From: a phage
DNA: 64,000 nt
Sequence record: PZ386967.1
Reading direction: 5' to 3' (one strand)
Shown: one piece after another, positions 1 through 29,934 of the stretch
Position numbering within the stretch: position 1 is the stretch's first letter
Layout: each line of letters starts with the position of its first letter
Program-made: the position numbers and the translations under genes
Notes under the pieces: model-generated
Databases searched by the model: none
What the model was told of the DNA's origin: nothing
Seen by the model: only the letters and a program-made list of their open reading frames with translations

Positions 1-174
1 ATCACCGAAGTCCGTGCCCTGAACAAGACACTGTCTAAAGTGGTGTATGGTATCGTTGCTGGCCACGGCTGGTTCACCGACCTCGACCTGGAAGAGTCCA
101 CCATGGAAGTTGAAGTGGATGGCGTGAAGTACAAGGTCACTGCCGAACTGACAGAGAAAGAAATCAAAATCTAA
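1..174 (+). CDS. 3-prime fragment of a CDS running in from upstream (hypothetical protein)
   Basis: Open frame from position 1 to TAA at 172-174; followed by a GC hairpin plus T-run. Confidence 0.4.
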   Translation: MTEVRALNKTLSKVVYGIVAGHGWFTDLDLEESTMEVEVDGVKYKVTAELTEKEIKI

Positions 175-182
175 TCCAACGG

Positions 183-206
183 GCGGGGCAACCCGCCTTT
201 CTTTGG
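183..206 (+). terminator. Putative rho-independent terminator
   Basis: GGGCGGGG-caa-CCCGCC stem-loop followed by TTTCTTT immediately after the upstream stop; coordinates approximate. Confidence 0.4.
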
Positions 207-216
207 GAGAAGTAGC

Positions 217-540
217 ATGAGCAGTAAACCAACATATGTTGAAGTCATGCGTCATCTGGCTCAGTACGCCACTGACAATCTGAACTTGGATCTGTGGCGT
301 GACGATGACAAGCGCAAATTGCTGGACGACGTGGCATCTCAGAACGAGGACGCCCTAGACAAGCTGGCTGGCCTCCGCACCAAGAAAGACCTCGGCGGTG
401 ATGAACTGGACGCTATCGAAATTGTAATGGACCTCGAAGAAGAGTTTCAGGTCGAAATCGACGATGGTTGGCTGGGCAGTAAAGGTGATGACCCGACCAT
501 GGGTGAACTCGCTGAACTCGTGGTTGCCCTGCGCAAATAA
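217..540 (+). CDS. Acidic acyl-carrier-protein-like protein; carrier Ser position is Glu
   Basis: Segment DLGGDELDAIEIVMDLEEEFQVEI closely matches the ACP phosphopantetheine-site helix ([20 protein letters not shown]) but has DEL instead of DSL. Confidence 0.5.
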   Translation: MSSKPTYVEVMRHLAQYATDNLNLDLWRDDDKRKLLDDVASQNEDALDKLAGLRTKKDLGGDELDAIEIVMDLEEEFQVEIDDGWLGSKGDDPTMGELAELVVALRK

Positions 541-545
541 CAGAA

Positions 546-611
546 GTCCCCAACAAACGTTGGGGATTTTTACTTTTAGGGGTTTACTTCTATAATGTAA
601 ATGCGTATTAT
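546..611 (+). promoter_or_regulatory. Terminator hairpin fused to early-type promoter (TTTACT-N17-TATTAT), repeat copy 1
   Basis: CCCCAACAAACGTTGGGG hairpin plus T-run, then TTTACT, 17 nt spacer, TATTAT; about 45 bp near-identical to 903-948. Confidence 0.5.
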
Positions 612-660
612 TGAATTCATAGAGCGGGGCGTTCCTGTTCATTGAAAGAAGGTATACATT

Positions 661-885
661 ATGTCTGCTATATCATGTGTTGTTGATCTCACCCCATTTT
701 GCCTGAACAATATTGCTAACCCTAAATTGGTCTTGTTTAAGGATCCCTCTAATTTCTGCTGGCTGGCAAGTTGTGATACCAACAACGGGCGTCGTGCTGT
801 TTGGGAGTTTCCCGCAACTGATGAAGGCAGAATTTCTGCTATAAGAAAATTAGAACTAGAAAATTCAAGCCGAGAAATTAAATAG
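661..885 (+). CDS. Hypothetical small protein
   Basis: ORF downstream of promoter copy 1. Confidence 0.35.
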   Translation: MSAISCVVDLTPFCLNNIANPKLVLFKDPSNFCWLASCDTNNGRRAVWEFPATDEGRISAIRKLELENSSREIK

Positions 886-902
886 GCATAACTTTTATTA
901 AA

Positions 903-968
903 TCCCCAACAAACGTTGGGGATTTTTAACTTTTAGGGGTTTACTTCCTTTAAGGAATGTCCTATTAT
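903..968 (+). promoter_or_regulatory. Terminator hairpin fused to early-type promoter, repeat copy 2
   Basis: Same hairpin and TTTACT-N17-TATTAT as 546-611. Confidence 0.5.
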
Positions 969-1019
969 TCAATAACTGGCGAACGATGGGTTCACCGGGT
1001 TGAAAGGTAAGATTATATC

Positions 1020-1259
1020 ATGAAGAACAAAATGGTCGAAACTTCAGTAGAGATTGATCGCAATTGGGGATTGCTCCGCGCTAAAGGGTTCCGTCGTGTG
1101 TATGCGACCAAAGAAGTCTACGCACAGCGCCGTGACGTTATCATCAGCAAGAAAGGCAAAGAGTGGGTTGCTGAAGAAGTTGATGTCGAGACAGGCATCG
1201 TAGGAAAGGTAAAGGCCAAGGCCGTGATCCTCTTCGCTCTTCTGAAGCACATCAGTTAA
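1020..1259 (+). CDS. Hypothetical protein
   Basis: ORF with ATG preceded by purine-rich stretch; downstream of promoter copy 2. Confidence 0.4.
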   Translation: MKNKMVETSVEIDRNWGLLRAKGFRRVYATKEVYAQRRDVIISKKGKEWVAEEVDVETGIVGKVKAKAVILFALLKHIS

Positions 1260-1318
1260 TTCTATAACTTTGGGCGGGGTATGATTACCCCGTCTATTTG
1301 AAATGCAGGAACTATACC

Positions 1319-1825
1319 ATGACCGATCAACAAATTCAAGATTTATTTTACCTCGTCCATGATAAGTCCCACATCATGCGCCCCGGTACTGTTTCCCCTG
1401 CCGTCCGTGATCTGGTGCAAGAATTGCGCGAACCACAGACGACCACACTTTATCGCGGGTTGCCTAAAGAGGACGTTGCGCGTTTAGAGATGATGTTTGA
1501 ACGAGGCGACATGTTCCAGACATGGGATTCTTGCCTTAGCTTCAGTGAACTGAAGCATGTGGCCAAAAAATTTTCTAAATCGTACGGAACCCAAGCTGTT
1601 GCCCGCATTTGTTACAAACATCGAAACAGACTCCCGGAGGGGCTTAATGTCTATGGTTCTCTAGAAAAATTTGTGAACAAAGGCGATGAATCAGAAATGG
1701 ATATGCTGGACTTGGCGTCCATGGAGAAAGAATGGATATTCTGCCAGCCTCGCGTCATACCAGTTTCAAGAAAAATGGCAACAGACGGCACGATGGTTTT
1801 TACCGTATCACTTGTTACCCTATAA
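1319..1825 (+). CDS. Hypothetical protein; possible ADP-ribosyltransferase-like (R, S-x-S, E-x-E motif order)
   Basis: Start trimmed to Met after AGGAACTATACC leader; motifs LYRG, WDSCLSFS, EKEW in the order of R-S-E class ARTs such as T4 ModA/ModB; weak. Confidence 0.45.
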   Translation: MTDQQIQDLFYLVHDKSHIMRPGTVSPAVRDLVQELREPQTTTLYRGLPKEDVARLEMMFERGDMFQTWDSCLSFSELKHVAKKFSKSYGTQAVARICYKHRNRLPEGLNVYGSLEKFVNKGDESEMDMLDLASMEKEWIFCQPRVIPVSRKMATDGTMVFTVSLVTL

Positions 1826-1877
1826 ACCCACGGCGGGGTATGATTACCCCGTCTATTTGAAACCAAGAGACTATATC

Positions 1878-2255
1878 ATGAAAAAGTTAATCCTCGCTGT
1901 TGCCCTGCTGGGCGCTTCCTTTGCTGCTGTTTCCGCCCCTCCTGTCATCACCGGAGTGTCTACCAACGGTGTTTATGCTTTCAAGGCGTATGGCCAAGAC
2001 CTCGTTCTGTATAAGAACGGGAAGATGATTGAGCGCTGCGTATCAGACGACGTGAATCGTGGGATCGACAATCAGGGTAGCCCATACGTCCTGGACATCT
2101 ATTCCTGCTCCAACGGGACGAAGTCCTTTGGCGTCAAGACCTTTGGCAACGTCGCCGACGGTGGCTGGGGCTTCATGTTCGAAACCCGCAACCACCACCC
2201 GGTCAAGACCATGCAAGAAGAGTTCTTGATCTCTGTCGGGGGTGGAACATTATGA
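1878..2255 (+). CDS. Secreted protein with N-terminal signal peptide
   Basis: Start trimmed to MKKLILAVALLGASFAAVSA after AGAGACTATATC leader. Confidence 0.5.
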   Translation: MKKLILAVALLGASFAAVSAPPVITGVSTNGVYAFKAYGQDLVLYKNGKMIERCVSDDVNRGIDNQGSPYVLDIYSCSNGTKSFGVKTFGNVADGGWGFMFETRNHHPVKTMQEEFLISVGGGTL

Positions 2256-2539
2256 CGCCTGAACAACGCCGTTCCGTGAAAGTCATGGTGAAAGGTAAGA
2301 CTCAGCTGAGTTATGTCCAGTCTGCCAATGTTGTCCGCCTGATGGAAGTCAAGAACGACATCGACAACTCCCGATTCCAATCGGCACTCTACGGGCTTCT
2401 CGAGTTCGTTCTTCGCCAGGCTGATCTTGGTCCTGTCTATACTCTTGATGATCTGACCAAGCTGTTGAACACGGGCGGGGAAGGTTTCGACACTGCTCGT
2501 ATCCTGATTGACGGTGGACCTAAAGAAGACGAGGTATAA
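2252..2539 (+). CDS. Hypothetical protein
   Basis: ORF with stop/start overlap to upstream gene. Confidence 0.4.
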   Translation: MTPEQRRSVKVMVKGKTQLSYVQSANVVRLMEVKNDIDNSRFQSALYGLLEFVLRQADLGPVYTLDDLTKLLNTGGEGFDTARILIDGGPKEDEV

Positions 2540-2699
2540 TTTGGATAAAGAATTGGTTTGGGAAATTGTGAAGGGTGTCCTAGTAATAATCGCGGTGGTT
2601 TTCATCTTGGGTGGAAACTTCTTCTATTGGTTATTCCGATCCGACCAGAAACGTCGCGAACGCAAGGAGAAAGAGAGAAAGGATCGATGGATGCGCTAA
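2508..2699 (+). CDS. Small membrane protein, start uncertain
   Basis: Hydrophobic segment VKGVLVIIAVVFILGG followed by a basic tail. Confidence 0.3.
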   Translation: MTVDLKKTRYNLDKELVWEIVKGVLVIIAVVFILGGNFFYWLFRSDQKRRERKEKERKDRWMR

Positions 2700-2731
2700 C
2701 TAAGGGATAACCCTATATCCCGAGGTGTGTC

Positions 2732-3181
2732 ATGTTCCTTACATCCTTTATTGACTGGTTGAACATCATTAACGGCCTGAGGATCCCTGTTGGGAACCTC
2801 GGGCTTTCTCGTTCTTCTATGCCGCAAATCGATGCCGACAAACAAGAAGATTTTCACAAATATCTTGAAGACAACGGCGTGTCCATAGATGCTGTGCAAG
2901 TGCCCATCAAAATGCTTCGTCTCACCCAGAACGAAATCAACAAGATGAAGGTCTGGAAGATCATGAAGCAGATCAGAAATAAGAAACCTATGGGTCGAGT
3001 TTGGGTGTCTTCTGACAATTACGTTGTTGACGGTTCTCACCGATTTGTCGCTGCGTTGAACATGGACGGCAAACAGCGCATGAAGGTCTACAAAGTTGAT
3101 TTGCCAGCGATGGAATTTGTTAAACTCGCTAAACAGTTTCAGGGTGTGCGATACAGAACGGTCAGCGATACCCGTTTCTGA
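2732..3181 (+). CDS. ParB/Srx-like nuclease domain protein
   Basis: Motif VVDGSHRFVAA resembles the ParB N-terminal DGxHR signature. Confidence 0.4.
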   Translation: MFLTSFIDWLNIINGLRIPVGNLGLSRSSMPQIDADKQEDFHKYLEDNGVSIDAVQVPIKMLRLTQNEINKMKVWKIMKQIRNKKPMGRVWVSSDNYVVDGSHRFVAALNMDGKQRMKVYKVDLPAMEFVKLAKQFQGVRYRTVSDTRF

Positions 3182-3260
3182 ATACGATAGTTTATTGAAA
3201 CCCTTTACTCATCATGGTGAGCCGCCTATCATTTCATCCAATGAAATAAGGAGAATCACC

Positions 3261-3947
3261 ATGAAACGTTTAATCCTCGGGGTCGTGCTGTCTGGTCTGG
3301 CATTACCCGCCGCTGCTAAGCTGAACCCCACAGGTGATAAACTGTGGTCCGACCTTTCCTATTGTGCTGGGTTCTCCCAGGCGGTTGCCATCGACAAGTC
3401 TGGTTCCATAGAGAACTTCGCTGAACTCTGGAACACAGGCAACGTCTCCACTGCTGTCGTCAATGCCGGAATTGAGTTCAACCGTTACAAACAGGGAGCC
3501 TATAACCTCAAGGGCTACCTCAATGACGACGAATTTAACCGTGGAGGCATGGAGGCTGGCGATTTGATCATGACTGGGCGTATGGGCACCCAAGGCCGAA
3601 TGACCGTAAGACAGTGCCGTTCGCTCCCTTCTCCGGCATTACAGAAGGGTGTGCAGGTTGGTCGCCGCCACCTGAACCTCATCAACGATGGCAACCAGTG
3701 CGTCAAAGTATTCGAATACAGCGCTACGCAGACCTCTGATCGCGTCCTGAAGAAGGAATGGCGCACCCGCGCTCTTGGTCTCAGAGCCTGGCTGGTTGAG
3801 AACGATTATTACTTTGAAGACAGGGTTCAGAACGGTCTGAAAGACCTGGCCACGAATCTGAGCGTGAACCTTGATGATCCTCGCATGTCGCGCGAACTCC
3901 AGCAGACTCGTGTTGACTGCGACAATATGATGAAGGAGAACGAGTGA
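3261..3947 (+). CDS. Secreted protein with signal peptide
   Basis: Start trimmed to MKRLILGVVLSGLALPAAA after AGGAGAATCACC. Confidence 0.5.
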   Translation: MKRLILGVVLSGLALPAAAKLNPTGDKLWSDLSYCAGFSQAVAIDKSGSIENFAELWNTGNVSTAVVNAGIEFNRYKQGAYNLKGYLNDDEFNRGGMEAGDLIMTGRMGTQGRMTVRQCRSLPSPALQKGVQVGRRHLNLINDGNQCVKVFEYSATQTSDRVLKKEWRTRALGLRAWLVENDYYFEDRVQNGLKDLATNLSVNLDDPRMSRELQQTRVDCDNMMKENE

Positions 3948-4273
3948 TGAAATGTAAAATCTTGCTCTTGTTGGTACTGATAGCCGGATGTGTAAACGCC
4001 GCGCCACCGTCCAAACTGAACACATGTGTGGCATGGATGGAGACGTATCAGCAGTTCCACCCAGATGACAAAGACACATCTATCCTCCTGTCTGACTTTG
4101 AGGGAGAGCTGAAGCGCCTTGATCTGTTCAGTGTTGATCAGATAGAGAATGCGCTGGATCTTCCCATGATGCTGACTGCGGCTGATAACAGTCCACAAAC
4201 GAAGAAAGACCTGATGTATTGTCGGGGGATTGCCCAGGACTTTGTCGGATTTCAAAATAAAGTTTCGGGTTAA
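3944..4273 (+). CDS. Putative lipoprotein
   Basis: N-terminus MMKCKILLLLVLIAGC has a lipobox-like LIAGC. Confidence 0.5.
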   Translation: MMKCKILLLLVLIAGCVNAAPPSKLNTCVAWMETYQQFHPDDKDTSILLSDFEGELKRLDLFSVDQIENALDLPMMLTAADNSPQTKKDLMYCRGIAQDFVGFQNKVSG

Positions 4274-4309
4274 AATTTAGCCCTACATTGTGAACTGAAG
4301 GAATACACT

Positions 4310-5179
4310 GTGATGCTCCTGACCAAAACAATCGCTGCGGCGATTATCGAAAAGAATAAGGCTTTTGCCCCCAACGTAGCCAAAGTTATGTTGGTACACG
4401 AAGACGCTCGCGTGATCTTCGCCGAGAAGTTCGAGATGGGCGCGAAGTTCTGGTATGCCGACAACTTACGTGAGAGCAAACTTCAGGGTATCATCCACAA
4501 ACTGACTCTGGTCGCCAAGCGTAATGACCAGGGTGACTGGGTCGGCGTTTCTGACTTCAGTACGAAGATCACCCCAAAGGCTCCGCTTTCTCGTCAAGAG
4601 CGCATTCTGGAAGCCCAGGAAAAGCTGCGTGCGGCTCGGAGTACCACAAAGGCGAAGCCAGATGCAAGCCCTGTCATCAAGCCAGCGGTTGTTCCTAAGT
4701 CCAAATACCTCCCGCCCGTGAGTCAAAAGTCTGTGGAGCAATTGGTTGAGAAGCGCAAGGGTGACGTTGTGATGAAGTCTGACTCTTCAGTGGAGTCGTT
4801 CAAGCCGGATCCAGCAGAAGTACAGGCGCTGGCAGAAAAGGTAAAGAATTCACAATTCATTTCCCTGCGCGAACTTGAACCGCCTACTCGCCGTCGTATC
4901 GCCAACGAGCTGTTTGTGTCGTTCAGGTCGGATGGCAAGATCGTCCTGTGCAAAGCCCTGCGCGATGCAATCCCTTGGACAACTCTGAACATGATGGTCA
5001 CTCGCGACTTCAAGCGTTTTGGTATCATGCAAGGCAAGGACTACAACGTCAACCAGAGCGGGACTTATGTTAATCGCGCCATGTGTGACAAACTGACCTT
5101 CCCAGAAGACACCGGAACGATCCGTGTCGTTCTGAATTGGGATGACAAGCTGAACATGTATGTTGGCGATTTCCAATAA
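4310..5179 (+). CDS. Hypothetical protein
   Basis: 289 aa ORF. Confidence 0.5.
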   Translation: MMLLTKTIAAAIIEKNKAFAPNVAKVMLVHEDARVIFAEKFEMGAKFWYADNLRESKLQGIIHKLTLVAKRNDQGDWVGVSDFSTKITPKAPLSRQERILEAQEKLRAARSTTKAKPDASPVIKPAVVPKSKYLPPVSQKSVEQLVEKRKGDVVMKSDSSVESFKPDPAEVQALAEKVKNSQFISLRELEPPTRRRIANELFVSFRSDGKIVLCKALRDAIPWTTLNMMVTRDFKRFGIMQGKDYNVNQSGTYVNRAMCDKLTFPEDTGTIRVVLNWDDKLNMYVGDFQ

Positions 5180-5235
5180 TCAATAACCTCGGGCGGCTTA
5201 TCATAAAGCTGCCCTTTCATTTGAGAGACTATATC

Positions 5236-5898
5236 ATGGAAAAACTTTATTCTATTATCGTCGGTCCTGATCCTGACGGATTATTCTTCGCCTCGTTGTC
5301 TTATATTGCCCACGCCCGTATCGGTAGCTATTACGCATATTGCACACGTGGCCACGACGGTTCCAATATCCTCCATTATAGCCGCCTGAACGATTTCCTG
5401 GCACTTCAACCAGAAGATGTTGTGCTGGCGCGTCGCGTGTTCATCGACTTCAACGCGATGCACAACAACGAAATCGACGCTCGCTACCATGCCATGCGTT
5501 CTATGGACGGGGGAGATTGCATTTATCGTATCGACCATTTTAGTGAGTTTACCGAATGTATTGATTGGTTTATCTCTGATAAAGTGATGGGTGAAAGAAT
5601 CGTCACAACTCCGTGGGCACATGCGGAACAACTTCGTGTGTCTACCGATGCGTACAAAGAAGTCGACAATCTGTGCAACAAGTTCCGCATCTCGGTGACC
5701 TGTAATCAAGACCTGGGCGAAGAGATACAATGGACAGCTGAGTCTCCTCATTTCAGTGGCCTGGTGATGACGGCCGAAACCCGTTCCCGTGCTGTTGTCC
5801 AGTTAGTACTCTGGGCGTTCTACCAGCGCACCCCGTTCTCGTACATGGGGCAGAAAGAGATTGATGAACTCCTGAAGTCTCACGCGGTGGAGGTGTAA
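5236..5898 (+). CDS. Hypothetical protein
   Basis: Start trimmed to MEKLY after GAGAGACTATATC leader; hairpin terminator upstream. Confidence 0.5.
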   Translation: MEKLYSIIVGPDPDGLFFASLSYIAHARIGSYYAYCTRGHDGSNILHYSRLNDFLALQPEDVVLARRVFIDFNAMHNNEIDARYHAMRSMDGGDCIYRIDHFSEFTECIDWFISDKVMGERIVTTPWAHAEQLRVSTDAYKEVDNLCNKFRISVTCNQDLGEEIQWTAESPHFSGLVMTAETRSRAVVQLVLWAFYQRTPFSYMGQKEIDELLKSHAVEV

Positions 5899-5899
5899 T

Positions 5900-6178
5900 A
5901 TGGCTGGCGTATGGTGTGATGTCTTGCTGGTTCGTTACAGCGTAAATGGGTGTGTCCAAGTGCGTTCCGCCTTCTATCCAGTACCGTTCTCTTCCGGTGG
6001 CCTGACGGTTCAGCGAGTTCTCGATATTGAGGCAGAACTGAACAAAAAGTCTTTTGGTGTACAAGTCCTGGGGTACGATCTTCTGAATGAAATGATGGTT
6101 GAAGAAGACAAAGTTGAGACTGTCATTGGTCGTCAGGAGATGGAATCGTTAATCTCCAAATCGGAGGTCAAATCATGA
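5900..6178 (+). CDS. Hypothetical protein
   Basis: ORF tightly packed after upstream gene. Confidence 0.4.
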   Translation: MAGVWCDVLLVRYSVNGCVQVRSAFYPVPFSSGGLTVQRVLDIEAELNKKSFGVQVLGYDLLNEMMVEEDKVETVIGRQEMESLISKSEVKS

Positions 6179-16712: not shown

Positions 16713-16734
16713 TTTGAACCGAAGGAACTATATC

Positions 16735-17070
16735 ATGACACAACTCAAGAACTTCACCGCCGATGACATGTTTGCCTTCCAGGGTGCTGAGCACTTTGCT
16801 GACGGCTCCGTACCTCGCATCTACTACTTCTCCGACGAAGAAATGGAAGATTTCTTCGCCCTGATGGAAAAGGACTACGAACCAGACGACTTCGTTTATA
16901 TCATCCATCACGCCGAAGGACTGACATTGGGCTGGACGGCCAACAATGAACCAGAAGAAGTAAACTTCCCTGAAGGTATCATGTCAGAGCGCGTCGAATA
17001 TCTACTGGAAGCCCTGGACCCCCACACCCTCCCGCTCTGGGCGATGTCTGTAGCCCAAGTTCAAAAATAA
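16735..17070 (+). CDS. Hypothetical acidic protein
   Basis: Start trimmed to MTQLK after AAGGAACTATATC leader. Confidence 0.5.
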   Translation: MTQLKNFTADDMFAFQGAEHFADGSVPRIYYFSDEEMEDFFALMEKDYEPDDFVYIIHHAEGLTLGWTANNEPEEVNFPEGIMSERVEYLLEALDPHTLPLWAMSVAQVQK

Positions 17071-29170: not shown

Positions 29171-29221
29171 TCCCAGTAATTCATTGGCATTCGCCACAAA
29201 TTGAACAGCAGGAACTATATC

Positions 29222-29461
29222 ATGACCGACTCTGAAGTCTACGACACCTCAATGAAATACCACGCCATGACAGCCAAACGCGGCTGTGCTGCTAACAAGG
29301 CATATTGGATAGGTGAACTCAGAACCCTCCGCGCCGTGGTCAACCACGAAATCATTATGAATCACGACAACAACGGTCAAGGTAAAGACCGAGAAGAATT
29401 GAAGGTTGCTCGTGAACGTCTTCGCTTTGGTCTGACCAAAGCCCTTGAATATGTGAAATAA
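29222..29461 (+). CDS. Hypothetical protein
   Basis: Start trimmed to MTDSEV after CAGGAACTATATC leader. Confidence 0.5.
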   Translation: MTDSEVYDTSMKYHAMTAKRGCAANKAYWIGELRTLRAVVNHEIIMNHDNNGQGKDREELKVARERLRFGLTKALEYVK

Positions 29462-29472
29462 GGAACTATATC

Positions 29473-29934
29473 ATGACAAACAAAGTACTCACCAACCCAC
29501 TGCACAACTTCGGTTACATTCAACTCCCTCTGGTGATCGACACCCTGTACGCCGACGACAAAGAAGAGATCTGCTGGTCACCCACCGCACTGATTGAACG
29601 CGAAATCTTCAAGTCTGTTGTTGATGTCATGTTCCGTATCGGTCGCAATGGACCTCTGGTCTACCTCGGCAAGGTGACTGAGTTGAAGACAAGCCACAAC
29701 GAACGCTTCCTTCGTATCGATACAACGGGGTGCTCTCATCAGGACTTCAACACATTGCGCAATTATGTTCTGGTCAACCGCCCGGTCAGTCAACACCGCC
29801 CGTATCTGACGTCAATGCACATCGACAATTTCATCACCGACGTACACCTCCGCGCCGAAACCCTCCATGAAGAGGAAACAGGCCGAGCTATCGACACAGT
29901 CTTAAATATGGTTGTGATCACCCTGGCGGAGTAG
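29473..29934 (+). CDS. Hypothetical protein
   Basis: ATG preceded by AAGGAACTATATC leader. Confidence 0.5.
   Translation: MTNKVLTNPLHNFGYIQLPLVIDTLYADDKEEICWSPTALIEREIFKSVVDVMFRIGRNGPLVYLGKVTELKTSHNERFLRIDTTGCSHQDFNTLRNYVLVNRPVSQHRPYLTSMHIDNFITDVHLRAETLHEEETGRAIDTVLNMVVITLAE

Follow-up and report, generated by a model that had tools for sequence, protein, structure and literature searches.

A predicted Mod-family ADP-ribosyltransferase in an accessory, hairpin-flanked cassette of an Ackermannviridae phage

Among the closest known relatives of the protein considered here are two ADP-ribosyltransferases (ARTs) of phage T4: ModA, whose target is RNA polymerase alpha, and ModB, whose targets include S1, L2, EF-Tu, and trigger factor. 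The protein itself is a 168-aa product encoded at positions 1319-1825 of a 64,000-nt stretch of phage DNA (sequence record PZ386967.1), which is called the window below. In T4 the modA and modB genes stand in tandem, whereas the window has one Mod-like open reading frame (ORF) only; a second Mod-like paralogue was searched for across the 64 kb and none was found.

Both T4 enzymes bear the R-S-EXE motif of Arg-specific ARTs, and R73 of ModB is catalytically important (PMC10468400). ModB not only ADP-ribosylates but also RNAylates S1, L2, and others and acts on the translation apparatus, while ModA does no RNAylation (PMC10468400). A “Mod family of the RSE clade” has been recognized among viral ARTs (PMC9503650).

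The 168-aa protein is very probably an intact member of this family, an R-S-ExE ART that would modify host macromolecules with nicotinamide adenine dinucleotide (NAD+), most likely proteins on arginine. An original prediction, made from the sequence alone, had picked out three short motifs in the order R / S-x-S / E-x-E of cholera-toxin-class ARTs, had likened the product to ModA and ModB, and had cautioned that the match could be coincidental. All three motifs are present (LYRGL, residues 44-48; WDSCLSFSE, 69-77; EKEWIF, 136-141), and with the other features of the gene they are placed as follows.

1319..1825 (stop codon included), + strand: coding sequence of the predicted 168-aa Mod-family ADP-ribosyltransferase (ORF and sequence, PHROG 832, AlphaFold2 models and fold searches, hhalign to ModB and ModA).
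1307..1310, + strand: Shine-Dalgarno-like AGGA, 8 nt 5′ of the ATG at 1319, read directly from the sequence.
1358..1372, + strand: codons of H14-D-K16-S-H18, the family-conserved N-terminal HDKxH (conservation and hhalign to ModA and ModB).
1451..1459, + strand: codons of Y45-R46-G47, the predicted catalytic Arg motif on strand beta-1, aligning with R73-G74 of ModB and with the YRG of Vis.
1535..1549, + strand: codons of L73-S74-F-S76-E77, which correspond to the S-T-S motif and lie on strand beta-2 (conservation, Vis alignment, model).
1724..1735, + strand: codons of E136-K-E138-W139, the predicted ExE catalytic motif, located where strand 138-142 begins (conservation, alignments, model).

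The ORF runs from ATG 1319 to a TAA at 1823-1825. A mechanical ORF list begins it at TTG 1298 instead; because MTDQQIQ is the N-terminus in all homologues and the AGGA lies just upstream, the start is assigned to ATG 1319. The gene is intact, and judged from the ORF and the model its product is a single, stand-alone domain, with no other domain and no fusion to a virion protein. Short ORFs overlap it on the minus strand (1450-1608, 1484-1621, and 1651-1866; 45-71 aa) and on the plus strand (1359-1487; 42 aa); these were set aside, being short and situated within a coding sequence that is conserved and folds well.

Membership in the ModA/ModB class, as originally proposed, is supported by sequence profiles. 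Residues 2-159 match PHROG 832, “RNA polymerase ADP-ribosylase” (E 5.8e-15), and the same profile positions are matched by T4 ModB (1.1e-41) and ModA (1.7e-33). A profile search of 1.84 billion representatives returned 58 proteins at E <= 0.001, and 43 of these make up the distant alignment used below (mean column identity 24%). Compared by hhalign, the 43-sequence profile is homologous to ModB (99.2%, E 1.6e-19) and to ModA (97.4%, E 9.6e-12), pairing LYRG with L71-Y-R73-G74 of ModB and EKEW with its EQEW; on the searches run, the link to the T4 proteins is clear at the profile level only. When PDB chains were searched with this profile, the Arg-specific toxin Vis (4.2e-5) and ExoT (1.6e-3) were found, the alignment with Vis covering all three motifs (YRG, STS, EAE) and those with ExoS/T the FRG and, for ExoT, the STS; PDB-sequence searches with the single protein or a shallow profile gave nothing significant.

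ModB and the 168-aa protein are alike as single-domain phage proteins of the R-S-ExE type in PHROG 832. They differ in phage family (Straboviridae for ModB, Ackermannviridae here) and in size: ModB has 207 aa, the alignment starts at its residue 29, and its first ~28 residues have no counterpart. ModA (200 aa) has the PHROG and the fold class in common with the 168-aa protein. T4 Alt is likewise a phage R-S-E ART, one that acts on host RNA polymerase, but it is a 682-aa protein injected from the capsid, unlike the stand-alone domain here. Kinship to Alt was rejected: it belongs to PHROG 802 rather than 832, and its hhalign probability with the 43-sequence profile is 0.4%. Nor does the 168-aa protein have the makeup of a packaged ART of the Alt/VIP2 type.

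The conserved residues of the family are those of the motifs. R46, G47, S74, E77, E136, E138, and W139 are invariant across nine close homologues (56-93% identity), and orthologues of the ORF are found across many phages at 56-99% identity. In the 43-sequence alignment G47 and E138 remain invariant, and conservation reaches 90% or more at R46, S74, E77, E136, and W139. The same level is reached by L9, H14, and K16 in an additional N-terminal motif, LxHDKxH; in the HDKxH region T4 ModA has ITNK and ModB MEAK (MEAKK facing the HDKSH of the 168-aa protein), so that Lys alone is retained in both. Conservation of this kind goes well beyond chance, and the earlier caution about a coincidental match falls away. 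The ordered pattern [YFW]RG-(15-45)-S.[ST]-(40-80)-E.E, a crude measure that was set post hoc, is found in just one (the 168-aa ORF itself) of the window's 126 stop-to-stop ORFs with 120 aa or more; when the protein was shuffled 20,000 times, the pattern arose in 20 cases.

Structure prediction against ART folds, the check proposed originally, likewise finds an ART fold. AlphaFold2 gave a predicted local distance difference test score (pLDDT) of 83.7 with 10 sequences and 94.3 with 43 (predicted template modeling score, pTM, 0.88). In the model R46 lies on strand 44-47, S74 and S76 on strand 72-76, and E138 opens strand 138-142, which is the strand order expected of R-S-E ARTs. All of the top 50 Foldseek matches in the PDB are ARTs, the best being HopU1 (2e-7); C3 enzymes, ExoS/T, Certhrax, Vis, XopAI, the iota/CDT toxins, and Tre1 also appear. 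Among BFVD viral models beyond its own family, the best matches include the ModB from Serratia phage CBH8 (9e-11) and, at 1.4e-10, the ModA from Shigella phage Sf22. It thus combines the features of the R-S-E clade (ART fold, an aromatic-Arg pair on beta-1, Ser-x-Ser/Thr on beta-2, and ExE at the start of beta-5), and neither its triad nor its closest folds are those of the H-Y-E clade of diphtheria toxin, PARP, and Tpt1.

Vis of Vibrio splendidus (PDB 4xzj, an NAD+--arginine ADP-ribosyltransferase), the C3 exoenzymes, VIP2, Certhrax, and HopU1 are 7-17% identical to the 168-aa protein; they are larger (200-445 aa), and are secreted toxins or effectors directed against eukaryotic proteins. The C3 enzymes have a QxE motif and modify Asn, whereas the motif here is ExE.

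From these features we infer a catalytically active, arginine-specific enzyme. It would be synthesized after infection, from host-RNA-polymerase-dependent transcription in the early/middle direction. NAD+ would be bound through R46 on beta-1 and S74/S76 on beta-2, the ribose-nicotinamide bond would be activated by E138, and the ExE arrangement, through E136, would direct ADP-ribose to arginine side chains of host proteins. Like those of ModA and ModB, its targets would most plausibly belong to the machinery of transcription or translation, and their modification would aid host takeover.

The enzyme class is already catalogued in databases, so that the identification is correct but ordinary. 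The first 6 kb of the window match Escherichia phage vB_EcoM-ZQ1 best (MW650886, 96.8% identity), followed by members of Agtrevirus and Kuttervirus. By tblastn the ART gene is in 78 phage records, about 67 of them from Ackermannviridae of Salmonella, Escherichia, Shigella, or Enterobacter; the other 11 are distant copies in Erwinia jumbo phages. Orthologues with 94.6-95.2% identity (CBA120 orf140, Det7 gp48, PhaxI, and others) carry the RefSeq label “RNA polymerase ADP-ribosylase,” and the 99.4% identical copy in ZQ1 (MW650886.1, 106449-106952) has no annotated feature. Many GenBank records call the product “hypothetical protein” where their RefSeq twins have the ADP-ribosylase label.

Several points weigh against a Mod-family enzyme, or at least against a simple transfer of ModA or ModB function to it. 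Compared pairwise, the protein resembles T4 ModB only weakly (23% identity, E 0.009), and a tblastn search with ModB had no Ackermannviridae phage among the 30 of 1016 records listed. It has 32-39 residues fewer than the two T4 enzymes, and its HDKxH motif is absent from both, so that its choice of substrate may differ. The local Pfam and NCBIfam libraries contain no significant match to it. The empty Pfam result arises because PF26816 (Mod_ADP_RT) is absent from the Pfam copy used; precomputed matches to this family exist for homologues 81 and 57% identical to the protein. NCBIfam has no model matching the 168-aa protein, T4 ModA, or T4 ModB. RNA polymerase as the named target is a label carried over by homology from ModA and, as the targets of ModA and ModB differ, it does not fix the target here. 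The gene is dispensable in nature, being absent from close relatives, and literature searches found no paper on any Ackermannviridae ART or on an orthologue of this protein.

Candidate targets are RNA polymerase, as for ModA, or translation factors together with RNAylation, as for ModB, the profile being somewhat closer to the latter. It is possible, though we hold this only tentatively, that the relevant reaction of an active Mod-family enzyme is something other than plain ADP-ribosylation of RNA polymerase: modification of ModB-type targets (S1, L2, EF-Tu, trigger factor), RNAylation via NAD-capped RNA, or both, or modification of a host defence protein. RNAylation and translation targeting belong to ModB and not to ModA (PMC10468400), and by hhalign ModA is the more distant of the two, but these scores rest on one T4 sequence each, and their difference is not a phylogeny. 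The conserved HDKxH suggests a specificity of its own; given this motif and the shorter N-terminus, specificity need not equal that of either T4 enzyme. One argument against a ModB-like reaction is that ModA- and ModB-type specificities have no known sequence determinant and are not understood, according to the authors of the ModB work (PMC10468400). The gene neighbourhood also has no pointer to any target.

As a second possibility, a protein with the ART fold might act on something other than protein (the bases of DNA or RNA, in the manner of pierisin/Scabin-type enzymes, or else a small molecule), or might mainly hydrolyze NAD+. Some enzymes of the R-S-E clade do modify DNA or are NADases, and in a distant 763-aa relative, P0013, an N-terminal Mod-like ART domain (residues 10-146) is joined to a DNA enzyme, a topoisomerase of type IB (Pfam Topoisom_I and Top1B_N_bact); this is a hint that some members of the family have a function connected with DNA. 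For the 168-aa protein a non-protein substrate or mere NAD+ hydrolysis seems improbable.

Finally, the idea of an unrelated small phage protein (for instance, one related to the RavZ catalytic domain) or of no gene at all can be dismissed as having next to no chance of being right: the single-sequence PDB search was empty and the sole local Pfam-A match is RavZ_cat (E 0.041, 13.6 bits), but this is far under the 27-bit cut-off, occurs for 1 of 10 family members, and is taken as chance, and the fold, profile, and conservation results rule the idea out.

The surroundings of this probable Mod-family gene are the new detail of this analysis. The gene lies between direct repeat copies of 50 nt (1273-1322 and 1832-1881) with an identical core of 31 nt, which consists of a stable hairpin plus ATTTGAAA. 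The hairpins are:

1271..1296, + strand: upstream hairpin, in repeat copy 1; 11 pairs, loop UGAU, -18.8 kcal/mol, without a long U tract.
1832..1853, + strand: downstream hairpin, in repeat copy 2; 9 pairs, -16.8 kcal/mol.

The equivalent of the upstream hairpin in phage LIMEstone1 is annotated as a putative factor-independent terminator. An Rfam search of window positions 1-6000 found nothing, so the flanking hairpins belong to no curated RNA family. A hairpin-adjacent GTCTATTTGAAA box was considered as a window-wide motif and rejected (7 matches against 5.6 expected).

So delimited, the ART cassette is 559 bp long. A close relative, YX22, has exactly one repeat copy and no ART gene, its 79-aa ORF being followed directly by a 125-aa ORF; PH4, CAU_YEP3, and Marshall have a similar gap. 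In LIMEstone1 it is denV, not the ART gene, that follows the same hairpin and leader, and denV occupies the slot after the 79-aa ORF in EspM4VN, SFP10, and others as well. The ART gene is accessory, with a slot that holds denV or nothing in related phages. In all, denV was found in 88 Ackermannviridae records, and the ART and denV lists did not overlap in the rows sampled. CBA120 has its ART gene flanked by two diverged hairpin copies; corresponding positions in related loci are L003 1400-1470 and L006 540-610 and 1050-1075. The GC content at third codon positions (GC3) is 0.479 in the ART gene, compared to 0.55-0.67 in conserved neighbours.

This arrangement recalls the modular shuffling mediated by promoter early stem-loops (PeSLs), which are composite terminator/promoter cassettes, as described in T4-like phages (PMC2839356, PMC4122927). 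In both cases short repeated regulatory stem-loops bracket small variable genes, and close relatives differ by exact indels or replacements at the repeats, which leads us to infer recombination there. The differences are that PeSLs are known from T4-like phages, not from Ackermannviridae, and that the repeat flanking the ART gene is a hairpin plus leader without a recognizable promoter.

A second PeSL-like arrangement lies upstream. A 74-aa ORF at 661-885 (PHROG 22629, of unknown function; GC3 0.35) is bracketed by composites of an intrinsic terminator hairpin and a sigma-70-like promoter (547-616 and 900-973), the only repeat here that is a terminator-promoter composite; YX22, CBA120, and LIMEstone1 lack the ORF and have one composite copy each. 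The promoter candidates in these composites are:

940..968, + strand: sigma-70-like promoter candidate TTTACT-N17-TATTAT, the nearest upstream of the ART gene; consensus match only.
569-596, + strand: sigma-70-like site TTTACT-N16-TATAAT, also upstream of the ART gene; consensus match.

Each stands directly 3′ of a terminator hairpin (that at 900-925 in the case of 940-968), and the equivalent of 940-968 in LIMEstone1 was labeled “putative early promoter” by its depositors. Early expression of the ART gene is accordingly suggested by promoter matches of this kind, and seems reasonable to expect; literature searches turned up no transcriptome of these phages. The gene stands first in a long run of genes of the same direction, among them a helicase, RNase H, a gp55-like late sigma factor, SbcCD, primase, ribonucleotide reductase, thymidylate synthase, and UvsX, with baseplate and tail genes interspersed on the opposite strand. 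Since the phage encodes gp55- and gp33-like late transcription factors, it would seem to redirect host RNA polymerase in a T4-like way, and a Mod-type enzyme would be plausible in this setting.

The immediate neighbours give no clue to the target: acyl carrier protein (ACP) is the only one with a Pfam match, their PHROGs are all of “unknown function,” and no macro-domain, ARH, or immunity partner is evident among them. Located upstream of the ART gene, at 217-540 on the + strand, the phage's ACP gene matches PHROG 4154 and the Pfam family PP-binding. A metagenomic contig (L008, at 2940-3224) whose ART is 43% identical preserves the sequence of large protein, ACP-like gene, and ART, but no 79-aa ORF intervenes there.

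Some other observations concern the window at large. The motif (G/A)ACTATATCATG, which ends in a start codon, has 21 matches with up to two mismatches against 4.7 expected, a number reached by none of 100 shuffles; sites include 1011-1022, 1310-1321, 1869-1880, 5227-5238, 16726-16737, 29213-29224, and 29464-29475. This enrichment points to a conserved translation-initiation or leader sequence common to many of the phage's genes. ORFs 1878-2255 and 3261-3947 (+ strand; PHROGs of unknown function) have similar signal-peptide-like N-termini (MKKLILAVALLGAS... and MKRLILGVVLSGLA..., DNA repeat D4), and their products may be secreted or of the lipoprotein type. The 149-aa ORF at 2732-3181 (+ strand) has a homologue in PQ306799 called “cytidyltransferase,” a label that looks unsupported because the ORF has its one match in PHROG 2859 (of unknown function) and none in Pfam.

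It seems conceivable, if rather unlikely, that the HDKxH-bearing proteins form a Mod subfamily differing from ModA and ModB in substrate or reaction (a dedicated RNAylating enzyme, for example, or an inhibitor of host defence), possibly traded among Ackermannviridae as a host-specific cassette that can change places with denV at a recombination hotspot flanked by hairpins. The existing annotation had been transferred by homology, and independent evidence from fold and profiles upholds it as far as the enzyme class is concerned. As a minimal Mod-type enzyme of 168 aa with a very confident model, the protein would be convenient for work on structure and on RNAylation. In the biocontrol of E. coli O157, Salmonella, and Dickeya, CBA120, Det7, and related Ackermannviridae have found use or been suggested. 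A host-modifying ART that some members carry, while others lack it or have denV in its place, would offer a natural handle on host takeover.
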